From Escherichia phage Killian: 64,000 bases of DNA. The DNA lies in sequence record OQ446694.1; one strand, 5' to 3'. Each line of letters starts with the position of its first letter. Positions within the stretch are counted from its first letter, which is position 1. Positions 2,244 to 54,545 of the stretch are shown here, in pieces. The notes beneath the pieces were generated by a model. It had not been told where the DNA came from, ran no database searches, and worked only from the letters and a program-made list of their open reading frames with translations. A program made the translations under genes and the position numbers.

Positions 2244-5384
<3,141 letters not shown>

Positions 5385-39858: not shown

Positions 39859-40095
39859 TTATTTACCTATTACAGTTTTAATATGGGTTGTTCCACGTTC
39901 TTTAAGAGTGGAAAGCAATTTTTGGCATTTTTCTAAATCAGATTTCCAACTATACGGCCTATCAATACAAACCCATTCTGACTTATAATACTGCTTCCAT
40001 TTAGAGAAAAAATATTTCTTATACTCTACAGCAAATGAAATGTTCTCGTTAGAATAAGAACTAATTGCTGTGAGCTGTACCAAACGAAATTTCAT
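39859..40095 (-). CDS. Hypothetical protein (31.2 position)
   Basis: 78-aa ORF. Confidence 0.5.
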   Translation of the reverse strand: MKFRLVQLTAISSYSNENISFAVEYKKYFFSKWKQYYKSEWVCIDRPYSWKSDLEKCQKLLSTLKERGTTHIKTVIGK

Positions 40096-40676
40096 TATTC
40101 ACCACAGAATTCGTTGATGTTTTCCCAGTTTAACTTATTCAAGTTTTTCTTAGGAACATTAAACACTTCAATACCTGCATTTCGCAGAATATCATCCCAG
40201 CCAGGTTTATTTTTATCGTATGTTTCGCAATAAACCAGCTTTTTAATACCAGATTGAGCTATCGCTTTTGCGCAATCTGGGCAAGGAGAAAGTGTTACAT
40301 ACATAGTAGCACCTTCAATTGAAGAACCATTTCGTGCAGCAAACAAAATCGCATTTAGTTCAGCATGAATTTCATTTTTAGACGACCATTCAGAGTGAGC
40401 ACTACGGTGTTCTTTCGCTAAGACAAAACGATCAGTTGAACCAAACGATACACATTCAGGCTTATGGCCTTGAATGATAGTATGTTTAGGCTTATTCAGC
40501 AACCAACCTTGCTCAGCAGCATAATCACAACAGTTCACACCCCCGGCAGGTGAACCATTATATCCGGTAGAAATAATACGTCCATTCTTTTCAATTACTG
40601 CTCCTACCTTCCAGGAGCAACATTTTGATTCTTGCGATACTAAATATGCAATTTGAAGTACTGTACTCGCTTTCAT
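40095..40676 (-). CDS. cd: dCMP deaminase
   Basis: 193 aa; zinc-binding deaminase motifs HAELNAI and PCPDC. Confidence 0.95.
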   Translation of the reverse strand: MKASTVLQIAYLVSQESKCCSWKVGAVIEKNGRIISTGYNGSPAGGVNCCDYAAEQGWLLNKPKHTIIQGHKPECVSFGSTDRFVLAKEHRSAHSEWSSKNEIHAELNAILFAARNGSSIEGATMYVTLSPCPDCAKAIAQSGIKKLVYCETYDKNKPGWDDILRNAGIEVFNVPKKNLNKLNWENINEFCGE

Positions 40677-41011
40677 TTCATAATCACCAGATAAGCAGAT
40701 TTAGCAGTTTCAACACGATAAATTTCGTGACGAAGTTTAGTTATACTTTTAATAACAGAACTAATTATATTCTGCCCATCTTTAAAGCGGTTTTTCTTAT
40801 CAATAAAAATTGCGCCAACAATCTTTTTGTGAAGCTCAACTGGATACTTCGTCACAATAATAGCATCATACACAGAAGGATGAATACTATTCACTAGAGT
40901 GTCATTCATTAAAGTTATTCTAATGAACTGTGCTGTTTCAGAATCAAGCGCTCTATGATCGCCAGTATCATTTTCAAGACAATTATCAATTATATCAGTT
41001 AAATTCATCAT
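40673..41011 (-). CDS. Hypothetical protein (cd.1 position)
   Basis: 112-aa ORF. Confidence 0.5.
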   Translation of the reverse strand: MMNLTDIIDNCLENDTGDHRALDSETAQFIRITLMNDTLVNSIHPSVYDAIIVTKYPVELHKKIVGAIFIDKKNRFKDGQNIISSVIKSITKLRHEIYRVETAKSAYLVIMK

Positions 41012-41244
41012 AGTACGCCATACACCCTTTGTGCTTCAACTAATCCATCAAAATCCAGTTTAAGATGTGTTATTTGGTCACCATCACCTGGATTCACAAT
41101 TACTAATACTGAACGAGGAGTTTCGGTAATAACACGAACCGATGTTTCAGGAAATCGTTCAGAAACCTTATTTACCAATTCCTGAGCAAATAGTTTAACT
41201 TTTTCTTGGAATTCTTTAACAGTAATTGGTTTTTCACTTAGCAT
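41008..41244 (-). CDS. Hypothetical protein (cd.2 position)
   Basis: 78-aa ORF. Confidence 0.5.
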   Translation of the reverse strand: MLSEKPITVKEFQEKVKLFAQELVNKVSERFPETSVRVITETPRSVLVIVNPGDGDQITHLKLDFDGLVEAQRVYGVL

Positions 41245-41768
41245 GTTGATCCCAGCTCCTTACTTTCAACGTTTTTAACTAATTTGACAGAAACTAATTC
41301 AGCATCTTGTGTAATCATTACCGGGCCTTCTTCATACTCTTCAAGATATTCTAGAGCTTTCTTTTTAGCTTCTTCCTTCGTATCAGTTTGAGCATAGATA
41401 TAAAACATGCAACCACCAGTAATACCTACTACTTTCCACTTAATTTCTTTATCAGTTTTAATTTCAAATTTACTGACAGAATCATCTTTTTGAACTTCTT
41501 CGAAAAAAGAATATTCTAACATATAAGCAATTGAAAATAGCGGGCTAACTTTATAGGATTCGCCCATTACATCAACAGCTTTATACCAGCGGTCATCAAT
41601 TTCGCGTTTAATGCTAATAACATTTTTCGCAGGATCTATTTTTACTTTAAATGAATTTTCCCCAATAAACTGGGCAATTCGTTTATTAGCCCCGCAAGTT
41701 TCATTAAAAATATCTTTATATCCAGCTTTAAAGCGATAAACCTTATCTTCTTCAAACCATTCGCTCAT
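41238..41768 (-). CDS. Hypothetical protein (cd.3 position)
   Basis: 176-aa ORF. Confidence 0.55.
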   Translation of the reverse strand: MSEWFEEDKVYRFKAGYKDIFNETCGANKRIAQFIGENSFKVKIDPAKNVISIKREIDDRWYKAVDVMGESYKVSPLFSIAYMLEYSFFEEVQKDDSVSKFEIKTDKEIKWKVVGITGGCMFYIYAQTDTKEEAKKKALEYLEEYEEGPVMITQDAELVSVKLVKNVESKELGSTC

Positions 41769-41830
41769 TTCAATTTCCTCATTTGTTTTGGTAGAGCTAT
41801 AATATCACAACTCTACCATAAAGTAAACTA

Positions 41831-42106
41831 TTAAATTGCTTTGAATTCTGATGTCTGCGATTCAAAACGAATATCACCTTTGATGACTAGCTCAGCGTCA
41901 AGACCGAATACGACAATGATATGCGCGGAACCTGGATACAGCGTAATGGCAATAGAATCCACCTGGTCTGGAAGCAAAGTGTTCAATACATGAGTCACTT
42001 GAGCATGAATTCGAAGCTCGGCAGCGTTATCAAGCTTTTCAAACATATTATTAGCAATAATTTGGCTAAACACTACTTCTACGATTTTAGAATAAGTCGG
42101 AAACAT
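41831..42106 (-). CDS. Hypothetical protein (cd.4 position)
   Basis: 91-aa ORF. Confidence 0.5.
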   Translation of the reverse strand: MFPTYSKIVEVVFSQIIANNMFEKLDNAAELRIHAQVTHVLNTLLPDQVDSIAITLYPGSAHIIVVFGLDAELVIKGDIRFESQTSEFKAI

Positions 42107-42108
42107 AT

Positions 42109-42309
42109 TTACCTCACATAATTTTCTTCAAGCCAATCAATAACATCCAATGCATTATCAAAAGTTGAACCATCTACTTTATCTTCTGTTTCATAATCAA
42201 GAACATCTAAGCCTACTCTTCCATCAACAATAGGCCATAAACAAAATAGATATTTCTTTTCTTTTTCAATTTTATCACAAAGTCGATAAATCTTTTCTAT
42301 GTTATTCAT
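42109..42309 (-). CDS. Hypothetical protein (cd.5 position)
   Basis: 66-aa ORF. Confidence 0.5.
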   Translation of the reverse strand: MNNIEKIYRLCDKIEKEKKYLFCLWPIVDGRVGLDVLDYETEDKVDGSTFDNALDVIDWLEENYVR

Positions 42310-42498
42310 AAGTTTTCCATGGTAAAGGCAGTTTAGTTTTCTTTACTGTTAGTTCAATATCAGGATTCTTTTCTCTTAATTTAAGGCATTCCTCCCAAGC
42401 TCTGATTTCACTAGTGAATACACAAAACTGCCCATTACTAGTACCAACTAAACCACTATTTACAATAACAATAGACCAAGTTTCATGATGCCACGCCA

Positions 42499-42499
<1 letters not shown>
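42302..42499 (-). CDS. Hypothetical small protein downstream of pseT
   Basis: 65 aa from the ATG overlapping the pseT stop (TAATG); the longer track start would overlap pseT by 31 nt. Confidence 0.45.
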
Positions 42500-43720
<1,221 letters not shown>

Positions 43721-43724
<4 letters not shown>

Positions 43725-51408: not shown

Positions 51409-52269
51409 TTACACCGCCATTTTTCCTTTAATAGGAGGGTGTGATTCGTAACCTTTAAGAACGAAATCTTTAGGCCTGAGTTTAAGAACATATTCCAATT
51501 GTTCTTTAGTAGAAAGATAGCGGAATTTATAAGGCAATCCGCCTATTACCAGTTCACAAAGCTCTTTAGGTTCACGACGTAAAATTTCTTTACATTGTTC
51601 TACGTGATTCATATAGATATGAGTATTACCACCAGAAAATATCAAATCTCCTGGAATAAGATTACACATCTTAGCTACAATATGAACTAACGCAGCATAT
51701 GATGCAATATTAAATGGAAGACCGAGGAAAACATCTACTGATCGTTGATACCACTGCAAATCCAAATAGCCATTACGCACATTAAACTGATAGAACATAT
51801 GACAAGGCGGTAATGCCATATATTTAAGTTCAGCTGGATTCCATGCTGAAACAATTTGACGTCTATCATTTGGCAGTTTTTTAATACGATTAACAACTTC
51901 TACAATTTGGTCTACACCGCCAAAATCACGCCATTGTTTTCCATAAATTGGACCAAGTTCACCGCTATGATATCCTAAATCTTTTGCTTGATTTTCGTAA
52001 TTTTCGTCCCAGACTGTTTTGCCTTGAATTAATGAATCATGCTGAATTAATCGTAAATCATTGACATTTGTGCTTCCTGATAAAAACCAAAGTAGCTCAG
52101 CAATGCAAGCTTTCCAGGCGAGCTTCTTAGTTGTTACTGCAGGAAAACCTTTACTTAAATCCCAACGTAATTTAGTACCGAACAAAGCAATTGTTCCTGT
52201 GCCTGTTCGGTCATCAGTTTCATAGCCATTTTCAAAAATGTCTTTAATTAAATCTTGGTATTGTTTCAT
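51409..52269 (-). CDS. td: Thymidylate synthase, intron-less
   Basis: 286 aa continuous ORF, equal to the spliced T4 Td length; no group I intron. Confidence 0.95.
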   Translation of the reverse strand: MKQYQDLIKDIFENGYETDDRTGTGTIALFGTKLRWDLSKGFPAVTTKKLAWKACIAELLWFLSGSTNVNDLRLIQHDSLIQGKTVWDENYENQAKDLGYHSGELGPIYGKQWRDFGGVDQIVEVVNRIKKLPNDRRQIVSAWNPAELKYMALPPCHMFYQFNVRNGYLDLQWYQRSVDVFLGLPFNIASYAALVHIVAKMCNLIPGDLIFSGGNTHIYMNHVEQCKEILRREPKELCELVIGGLPYKFRYLSTKEQLEYVLKLRPKDFVLKGYESHPPIKGKMAV

Positions 52270-52314: not shown

Positions 52315-52665
52315 TCAATACGGTTTAGCGTCAAATTTTCTTTCAATTTCAGGCGTAAAATACAATTCTTTACCACGCTTGGAAAAGCGACCAATAATAT
52401 GATAATTATTCTCATCAAACGTGATATTGCCAATATCCATAGCTTTCAACCAAATATCGATATTTCTATCCAGCTTTATATCAAAATTCCAATACGGAGA
52501 ACTATTACCAAAAATACTGCAAGCGGATTCAGTGCAATAACTGCTGCTATAAATCTTGTCTTTGGGAACTACTAATTGATAGACGCCTTTAATAAACTGA
52601 GGACCCTGCCATTTTGGTTGTTTCGCGTCTTTTTCTAATAGAATAGGGTAATAATTAAAGTTCAT
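52315..52665 (-). CDS. Hypothetical protein between frd and td (absent from this position in T4)
   Basis: 116 aa from the ATG (120 aa from upstream GTG); no recognised motif. Confidence 0.55.
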   Translation of the reverse strand: MNFNYYPILLEKDAKQPKWQGPQFIKGVYQLVVPKDKIYSSSYCTESACSIFGNSSPYWNFDIKLDRNIDIWLKAMDIGNITFDENNYHIIGRFSKRGKELYFTPEIERKFDAKPY

Positions 52666-52685
52666 ATTTTCCGCCACGCGTTATT

Positions 52686-53270
<585 letters not shown>

Positions 53271-53513
53271 TCAAAACCCCCTTTCAATAAACCATTCAGT
53301 GGCTTTATTAGCATCAAAGAATAATTCTTCATATGTCTTTTCTTTGTTTTCAAAGACTGTCACACAAACGCGTTGACATTCTCCGCAGTATTCTTCTGAC
53401 ATACTCAAAGCGTCAGAAAACATTTCATTAAATTCATTTAAATCAGGATTATACAAAGCGTTAAAAATTGCATAATCGAATTCATCATTCATAAATTCAA
53501 ATACAAAAATCAT
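53271..53513 (-). CDS. Hypothetical protein (frd.1 position)
   Basis: 80-aa ORF. Confidence 0.5.
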   Translation of the reverse strand: MIFVFEFMNDEFDYAIFNALYNPDLNEFNEMFSDALSMSEEYCGECQRVCVTVFENKEKTYEELFFDANKATEWFIERGF

Positions 53514-53521
53514 ATTATCTC

Positions 53522-53857
53522 CTAATATAAAGGATCGGGAACATATCCACTGGCTTTAATCATTTTAATTAACGTTAACATTCCTTTATTAACTGCTCGT
53601 GAGATTTCATCAAAAACTTCATCACTAAAAAGTTCTAACACACCCTTCTGAACTTTTAATTTACATCCAACAATTTCGTCATCACCTATAGTAAATTCGT
53701 TTCCGCCAATTCCACCGAAAAACTTAATTACGCCAGTTAACTGTCTTCCACGAGAATATGGGTCGTGTGATAAAGTAATATGAGTCACCCCAGGTACAGT
53801 TTTAAATTGGCAGCGGATATTTACTTGGGCAATTCCAGTTACGTGAATGTCAGACAT
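53522..53857 (-). CDS. Hypothetical protein (frd.2 position)
   Basis: 111-aa ORF. Confidence 0.5.
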   Translation of the reverse strand: MSDIHVTGIAQVNIRCQFKTVPGVTHITLSHDPYSRGRQLTGVIKFFGGIGGNEFTIGDDEIVGCKLKVQKGVLELFSDEVFDEISRAVNKGMLTLIKMIKASGYVPDPLY

Positions 53858-54164: not shown

Positions 54165-54545
54165 CTACTTTTTGAAAGTTTTTCGCAAAAGTTCAATGAT
54201 TTCATCTACATTGTTTTCGTCTACAATGCAGTGAATTTTTGTTACGCCAGAAATCTTGTCTTCGACTTCATCTTCTTCAGAAGTCGGTTCTTTATACTCA
54301 CGAAAACAATGAAATTCGTCTTCGCAAATTTCTAAAAGTCTATCTTTGAGATAAAAATGCTTTCCATTTGCGCATTCAATGTGTTTTACTGCTTTGTATC
54401 CATTGGCGACGGAAACTTCTTTAACTTCAAACCATCCGCCATTATCTCGAATAGCTTTAACTATTGATGAATTAGAACGTGGACTATAATCAATAAATGT
54501 ATCAATAAGTCTTGGAACAAGTTCATACTTTCTACCAGTATACAT
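54165..54545 (-). CDS. Hypothetical protein
   Basis: 126-aa ORF with acidic patch. Confidence 0.5.
   Translation of the reverse strand: MYTGRKYELVPRLIDTFIDYSPRSNSSIVKAIRDNGGWFEVKEVSVANGYKAVKHIECANGKHFYLKDRLLEICEDEFHCFREYKEPTSEEDEVEDKISGVTKIHCIVDENNVDEIIELLRKTFKK

Follow-up and report, generated by a model that had tools for sequence, protein, structure and literature searches.

We have analysed a stretch of 64,000 nucleotides (nt) from Escherichia phage Killian (OQ446694.1), referred to below as the window, with focus on the small genes that lie on its minus strand between cd (40095-40676) and pseT (42499-43407). The gene order on that strand is rIII, 31, 31.1, 31.2, cd, six open reading frames (ORFs), pseT, an ORF of 106 amino acids (aa) and pseT.1. 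The six ORFs, of 112, 78, 176, 91, 66 and 65 aa, have exactly the sizes and coordinates that were given in a preliminary description of the sequence. Each of them matches its own PHROG family from end to end (E = 1e-37 to 1e-54) and was recovered by tblastn in 302 to 926 phage records, and therefore they can be considered genuine genes and not chance ORFs. Five of the six are, to judge from their order and identity (87-99%), the orthologues of T4 cd.1-cd.5. The remaining one, an ORF of 176 aa (ORF176; 41238-41768; phrog_3710 at 1.3e-54), has no counterpart in T4 and very probably belongs to the GoF/Frd.2/MotB.1 family, where it would be the fourth paralogue. The preliminary description had counted five cd.x genes in T4 and considered that one gene may be extra here. 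Indeed, T4 has cd.1-cd.5, and the extra gene is ORF176.

The ORFs had also been described as tightly packed. This holds for most of the cd-pseT block, where consecutive genes overlap by 4, 4, 7, 8 and 1 nt and one junction is a gap of 2 nt. The sole exception is a gap of 62 nt (41769-41830) that separates the 91-aa ORF from ORF176 and houses a promoter. At the upstream end of the block, the last ORF (42302-42529) comprises 75 aa when read from its first ATG and 65 aa when read from the ATG at 42499, which shares one base with the stop codon of pseT.

The promoter was identified in a consensus scan as a T4-type early promoter (41799-41827, minus strand), with TTTACT, a spacer of 17 nt, TATTAT and a TG upstream of the -10. 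It is homologous to the T4 early promoter annotated as Pe133295, which is located between cd.2 and cd.3. A Shine-Dalgarno sequence, GAGG, can be read at 41777-41780 on the same strand, 8 nt upstream of the ATG of ORF176, and the ribosome-binding element AAATGAGGAAA is conserved in the window, T4, T2, JS10, VR26 and a Mosigvirus. Since ORF176 comes first after a conserved sigma-70 early promoter and has a strong ribosome-binding site, it should be made in the first minutes of infection. In T4 and T2 the same promoter and ribosome-binding site are followed immediately by cd.2, whereas in the window ORF176 stands in between. Moreover, the Mosigvirus junction GAGGAAATTGAAATG-CTAAGTGA equals the window sequence minus everything from the ATG of ORF176 to the ATG of cd.2. 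The removal of ORF176 from T4, T2 and Mosigvirus thus appears to run precisely from its own ATG to that of cd.2, which inherits the promoter and the ribosome-binding site.

ORF176 and the GoF/Frd.2/MotB.1 family

GoF and Frd.2 together with MotB.1 have been grouped by Kim et al. (2025) as a family of Tevenvirinae early proteins, the 'LSm-like fold' family, in which an N-terminal LSm-like five-stranded domain of SH3 topology is followed by a flexible linker and a variable C-terminal domain, and which has FeoA, IdeR/SloR and Hfq as structural neighbours (PMC12152347). ORF176 falls outside the three proteins named by these authors because T4 does not encode it.

The relation between ORF176 and GoF was found with profiles in both directions. 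ORF176 matches the PHROG profiles phrog_5804 (the family of JS10 and VR26; 5e-12), phrog_622 (1.3e-4) and the 'goF' PHROG (3.6e-4). Conversely, T4 GoF, which itself belongs to phrog_622, matches phrog_3710 of ORF176 at 8.1e-12 over residues 1-120, and phrog_5804 at 1.6e-5. When the 16 sequences of the ORF176 family and the 12 of the GoF family were compared as profiles by hhalign, the probability was 88% and the E-value 3e-6 over 112 columns, and in BLASTP the GoF of Edwardsiella phage PEi26 matched residues 5-70 of ORF176 with E = 5e-7. In the alignment of ORF176 and GoF the residues F5, Y11, F13, F21, N28, A32, G36 and F40 are common to both proteins, as is an FF(E/D)EV strand, so that both ends of the N-terminal domain are covered; the corresponding motifs read FE..K.Y.FK, N...A...G...FK and FF(E/D)EV.

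Structure prediction followed by a Foldseek comparison, which the preliminary description had proposed for every product, was run for the 176-aa product and gave a model of low confidence with matches in T4-like phages only. A single-sequence AlphaFold2 (AF2) prediction was unusable (predicted local distance difference test, pLDDT, 44). The prediction made from an alignment of 16 sequences, a weak model with a pLDDT of 56, shows five strands within residues 10-92. In this model the N-terminal domain (residues 1-94; 41487-41768, minus strand) is predicted to be GoF-like, five-stranded and SH3/LSm-like, the C-terminal domain (residues 107-176; 41241-41450, minus strand) is predicted to have a beta-beta-alpha-beta-beta arrangement, and a low-confidence linker (residues 96-106) parts the two structured regions. 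The same division is seen in an allele of phage PaulHMueller (L004, positions 2983-3240), an in-frame deletion allele of 85 aa that lacks residues 15-104. Since residue 14 is joined to residue 105, this allele keeps only the C-terminal domain. The model and the deletion allele thus agree with the family layout of a linker followed by a separate C-terminal domain. Foldseek searches of the predicted viral structures in BFVD yielded proteins of T4-like phages only, all of them uncharacterised; the top match was a 180-aa protein of VR26, the same size as the syntenic orthologue in that phage. The alignments had a high root-mean-square deviation, which fits a mobile arrangement of the domains.

ORF176 thus resembles T4 GoF (ComC-alpha, 141 aa) in being an acidic two-domain protein (isoelectric point, pI, 5.0) that is encoded behind an early promoter, is limited to the Tevenvirinae and has FeoA and IdeR as structural neighbours. 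It differs from GoF in its size, in a C-terminal domain that is different and longer, and in its locus, which is the cd-pseT region and not the 39-motB region. In addition, GoF proper is also encoded by UGKSEcP1 and ESh26, phages with a region that matches that of the window in full, which makes ORF176 an extra paralogue beside goF. The Hfq/Sm (LSm) and FeoA-type SH3-like domains have no sequence similarity to ORF176, and ORF176 has no metal-binding histidines; Sm motifs were not seen in it either, though no search aimed at them was made. For GoF and MotB.1, published AlphaFold3 predictions gave no confident dimer or hexamer (PMC12152347).

The family appears to be restricted to T4-like phages, as all tblastn and Foldseek matches of ORF176 are found there. 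Pfam, NCBIfam and PADLOC gave no match to ORF176, and the PDB gave no relative of its sequence. A word-indexed search of 5.8 billion protein clusters returned only near-identical proteins of the same gene, and a search of 1.84 billion representative proteins returned only fragments of it. One apparent relative, P0006 (1345 aa, 17 matching stretches), was rejected as an artefact of 17 identical immunoglobulin-like repeats that each match weakly. For the six proteins together, searches of PADLOC, NCBIfam and PDB sequences gave nothing significant. The earlier statement that the ORFs show no recognisable motif is therefore mostly correct, and three of the six match only Pfam families of unknown function. 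ORF176 is no orphan, as profile methods relate it to GoF. All evidence taken together, we consider it very probable that ORF176 belongs to the GoF/Frd.2/MotB.1 family as its fourth paralogue.

Hidden Markov models (HMMs) of the ORF176 family, the GoF family and a mixture of both detected no second copy among all ORFs of the window, and hhalign found no match between ORF176 and the Frd.2 of the window. The latter orthologue (54165-54545, minus strand) has only 64% identity to T4 Frd.2. Its last ~40 residues differ at two positions only and its N-terminal domain is far more divergent, which makes frd.2 an unusually mosaic gene in a genome that is otherwise 94-99% identical to T4.

Distribution, descent and loss of ORF176

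The 3.5 kb around the island is 97-98% identical to many Tequatrovirus genomes (e.g. EPIMAM01, vB_SsoM_113 and ime09). To compare the distribution of the genes, records found by tblastn at an amino-acid identity of at least 90% were taken as Tequatrovirus. At this threshold cd.1, cd.2 and cd.3 were each recovered in 497 records (cd.2 and cd.3 in 926 and 895 records in all, respectively), cd.4 in 418 and cd.5 in 422. ORF176 was found in 302 phage records, all of them at least 90% identical, and is thus present in about 61% of the Tequatrovirus records when compared with the 497 that carry cd.1, cd.2 and cd.3. The carriers include T6, RB3, RB7, RB14 and RB33, and the gene is absent from T4 and T2. 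A tblastn search against plasmids returned nothing.

Within Tequatrovirus the orthologues of ORF176 are 95-100% identical; in vB_SsoM_113 and RB14, records with T4-style names, the gene is annotated as RB32ORF214c. The allele of the window carries one extra Gly codon at 41411-41416 (ITGGCMF versus the usual ITGCMF) and therefore encodes 176 instead of the common 175 aa; only the record of LF73P3 is 100% identical to it. More distant orthologues occupy the same slot between cd.3 and cd.2 in two other genera. The Dhakavirus JS10 has an ORF of 184 aa (EpJS10_0210) with 31% identity to ORF176 over 159 residues (E = 1e-11), and the Gaprivervirus VR26 has an ORF of 180 aa (gp207) that is 45% identical to the JS10 orthologue. 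Both lie behind the same promoter and ribosome-binding site as ORF176. The database entries RB32ORF214c, EpJS10_0210 and gp207, all three 'hypothetical proteins', thus are ORF176 itself or its syntenic orthologues, without any difference in kind, and none of the records listed for them ties them to GoF.

In the records AndreasVesalius and PaulHMueller of the BASEL phage collection the gene is labelled 'putative homing endonuclease'. The label could seem attractive, as ORF176 is flanked by conserved genes and constitutes an indel when compared with T4, and its patchiness could then be ascribed to the mobility of a free-standing endonuclease gene. Nevertheless, we consider this explanation extremely unlikely. 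No Pfam, NCBIfam or PDB match was obtained at E-values up to 1, and no GIY-YIG, HNH, LAGLIDADG or PD-(D/E)xK domain was found; an HNH site is in fact excluded because the protein does not contain a single histidine. The homology is to GoF and not to nucleases. Moreover, the gene uses the resident promoter and ribosome-binding site and brings none of its own. Finally, the distribution is patchy within Tequatrovirus, yet divergent orthologues are found in the same slot in Dhakavirus and Gaprivervirus, and their divergence over the three genera (31-45% identity) is close to that of the adjoining cd.3 (43% identity between the window and VR26), which fits vertical descent. The label was therefore rejected on the absence of a nuclease motif and of histidines, the homology to GoF and the divergent syntenic orthologues.

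The existence of these orthologues in Dhakavirus and Gaprivervirus makes it most likely that T4 lost ORF176. The gene is ancestral to several genera of the Tevenvirinae, and the data fit a history in which it was inherited vertically and then lost in T4, T2 and Mosigvirus; they do not fit a recent insertion.

Loss could also signify that ORF176 is a decaying remnant without current function, on its way out as in T4. About 39% of the Tequatrovirus records lack it, as does Mosigvirus; an allele with an internal deletion exists, and related genes, goF for example, can be dispensed with under laboratory conditions. A remnant would be hard to reconcile with the conservation of the gene, and we regard this possibility as very unlikely. 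The full-length frame is retained in 300 of the 302 records and is maintained over three genera at 31-45% identity, with some 30 columns that are invariant between genera. In addition, synonymous codon differences between the Tequatrovirus alleles outnumber non-synonymous ones (10 versus 6), and ORF176 holds what the sequence signals indicate to be the best-expressed position of the transcription unit.

The cd.1-cd.5 genes and the surrounding region

The five genes that ORF176 has as neighbours, all on the minus strand, follow the order of T4. The orthologue of cd.1 (112 aa; 40673-41011) is 97% identical to T4 Cd.1 and matches phrog_2063 at 1.2e-49, and its product has no Pfam match. That of cd.2 (78 aa; 41008-41244) is 87% identical to the annotated T4 Cd.2 and matches the Pfam family DUF7320 at 3.4e-34. 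The orthologues of cd.3 (91 aa; 41831-42106; 99% identity; Pfam DUF7355 at 1.1e-32), cd.4 (66 aa; 42109-42309; 97% identity; phrog_2360) and cd.5 (65 aa; 42302-42499; 94% identity; Pfam T4_Y13H, PF25744, at 4.5e-32) lie upstream of the promoter. The shared order and identity apply to these five only and not to ORF176. In some records cd.2 is labelled DinI-like. The match to PF06183 reaches 14.4 bits (E = 0.048) over 33 residues only, which is under the Pfam gathering cut-off of 24.2, and the label was rejected for that reason.

The start of cd.2 differs between T4 and the window. Just past the promoter-proximal ATG of cd.2 the T4 reference (L002, positions 4262-4290) has one extra G when compared with positions 41205-41244 of the window (AAAGGAATTCC versus AAAGAATTCC). 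This insertion of 1 nt breaks the frame from the ATG, and the annotated cd.2 of T4 therefore begins at an internal GTG. In T2 and in the window, neither of which has the insertion, the frame from the ATG is intact. The extra G is either a real frameshift in T4 or an old sequencing error.

The genes cd.1-cd.4 of T4 were scored 'Not Fit', i.e. without fitness effect, in a genome-wide CRISPRi-ART knock-down screen, and are thus dispensable in a published screen of T4; for cd.5, the individual guides shown in the supplement were likewise 'Not Fit' (PMC11879866 supplement). Literature searches for cd.1-cd.5 and RB32ORF214c returned no functional study.

The promoter region contains an inverted repeat (41789-41818, minus strand) that overlaps the spacer and the -10 of the promoter and can form an RNA hairpin with a folding energy of -19.5 kcal/mol (z = -4.9). 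Over four phages of three genera it has 12 consensus pairs, two of which show compensatory double changes. The hairpin is kept in T4, JS10 and a Mosigvirus, and at this position in VR26 another hairpin is found. Both arms would be present only in transcripts that read through from cd.3, and the hairpin could be an element of RNA processing or stability, or a protein operator.

The presence and absence of genes across T4-like genomes, a comparison that had been suggested beforehand, confirmed that the region varies between T-even phages. In a T2 record (PV648364; L009, positions 1736-1801) pseT is directly followed by cd.3, and cd.4 and cd.5 are missing, in agreement with the ~75-80 Tequatrovirus records without these two genes. 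As PV648364 is described as an 'escape mutant', the ancestral T2 may not have had this deletion. In the Mosigvirus LF82-3 (L010, positions 2331-3484) the slot of cd.1 is occupied by an ORF of 50 aa and an ORF of 330 aa, whose annotation reads phospho-2-dehydro-3-deoxyheptonate aldolase (DAHP synthase) and which is an auxiliary metabolic gene within the island. In JS10, cd.1 is missing and another small ORF lies beside cd.4. The preliminary description had allowed for the possibility that all six ORFs would prove to be invariant orthologues of cd.1-cd.5; this is not the case, as ORF176 has no T4 counterpart and the island is variable. As such, this part of a Tequatrovirus genome is an accessory block whose variability is known, an ordinary plastic region that has already been catalogued.

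Other ORFs of the window are likewise absent from T4. The 106-aa ORF between pseT and pseT.1 (43404-43724, minus strand) encodes a basic protein (pI 8.9) and corresponds to RB32ORF217c; it matches phrog_2364 at 3e-58 and has no Pfam match. ORFs of ~106 aa, alike in size and position, are also found just upstream of pseT in JS10 and VR26, and BASEL records label a shorter ORF (~100 aa) in this slot 'putative homing endonuclease'. Further indel ORFs of 120, 80 and 111 aa (52315-52677, 53271-53513 and 53522-53857, all on the minus strand) are located in the td-frd and frd-frd.1 intervals, where T4 has overlapping genes or a gap of 71 nt. The td gene itself (51409-52269, minus strand) is one unbroken ORF of 286 aa; the I-TevI-containing group I intron by which td of T4 is split is absent.

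A putative role for ORF176

On basis of its position and family we propose that ORF176 would be an immediate-early, non-essential accessory protein, made in the first minutes of infection, that like GoF may act post-transcriptionally, with as its target the RNA of the phage or the host, or else a host protein that handles RNA. Whether it is of benefit would vary with the host, and this would account for its absence from some 40% of the close relatives. The explanation as a whole, an accessory block between cd and pseT with ORF176 as an early GoF paralogue that modulates events after transcription, seems to us the probable one. The specific involvement of RNA is put forward more tentatively, as a possible mechanism for which the odds are not in favour. 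Background for the proposal is found in the work on T4, where goF mutations rescue the phage on rho-mutant hosts (PMC12152347). Both goF and motB.1 are dispensable and were scored 'Not Fit' by CRISPRi-ART (PMC11879866 supplement).

A number of observations argue against this proposal. The stabilisation of gene 41 RNA, a post-transcriptional effect, was seen only with the gain-of-function mutant GoF(D25Y) and not with wild-type GoF or MotB.1 (PMC12152347). The phenotype of this mutant is not transferable to ORF176, because D25 of GoF aligns with Thr24, and the pI of 5.0 argues against simple binding of RNA. The early expression of ORF176 is predicted from sequence signals alone. As for the family relation itself, a pairwise BLASTP comparison of ORF176 with T4 GoF was not significant, and an HMM built from GoF alone missed ORF176 among the ORFs of the window; the homology thus constitutes evidence at the level of profiles. 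Kim et al. themselves required deep profile searches to detect the homology within the family (PMC12152347).

The acidic nature of ORF176 is also in line with another role, since many phage inhibitor proteins are acidic. The SH3-like domain could bind a host protein, such as a component of a defence system or Rho, and not RNA, so that ORF176 would be a counter-defence or host-range factor and its patchiness the result of an arms race. The polymorphism among near-identical genomes (302 of ~497 records), the in-frame deletion allele and the first position behind an immediate-early promoter can all be read in this way, and the genetics of goF is linked to rho alleles of the host (PMC12152347). 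The preliminary description had called such islands hotspots for host-takeover and anti-defence genes, and such a role would be a hypothesis for this one. However, no evidence for anti-defence activity was found, where it should be noted that the PADLOC models cover defence proteins only. Moreover, a similarity to Gp2 derives from a model of low confidence and concerns a small alpha/beta fold of a generic type, and a pull-down of GoF yielded mainly GoF itself. We therefore judge a role through binding of a host protein to be rather unlikely. A more specific variant holds that ORF176 would be a conditionally useful host-range or counter-defence gene that, for example, shields early phage transcripts or neutralises an RNA-directed or Rho-linked exclusion by the host; we consider this less likely still. 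If it were true, T4, T2 and Mosigvirus, which lost the gene, and T6 and the RB phages, which retained it, would form a natural series of knock-outs that could show the function of the GoF/LSm-like family.

The identification of the 'extra' gene as a GoF-family paralogue that was lost from T4, very probable as it is, forms a useful addition to the description of this region. A gene that is present in ~300 sequenced T-even phages, and that has so far been labelled 'hypothetical' or 'putative homing endonuclease', can now be filed as the likely fourth paralogue in the GoF/Frd.2/MotB.1 family. Phages that are nearly identical occur in nature with and without ORF176, so that pairs of such isolates would be an inexpensive means to look for a phenotype. 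Within the family, frd.2 is the sole T4 gene of unknown function that was scored 'Fit', and hence important for fitness, in the genome-wide CRISPRi-ART screen.

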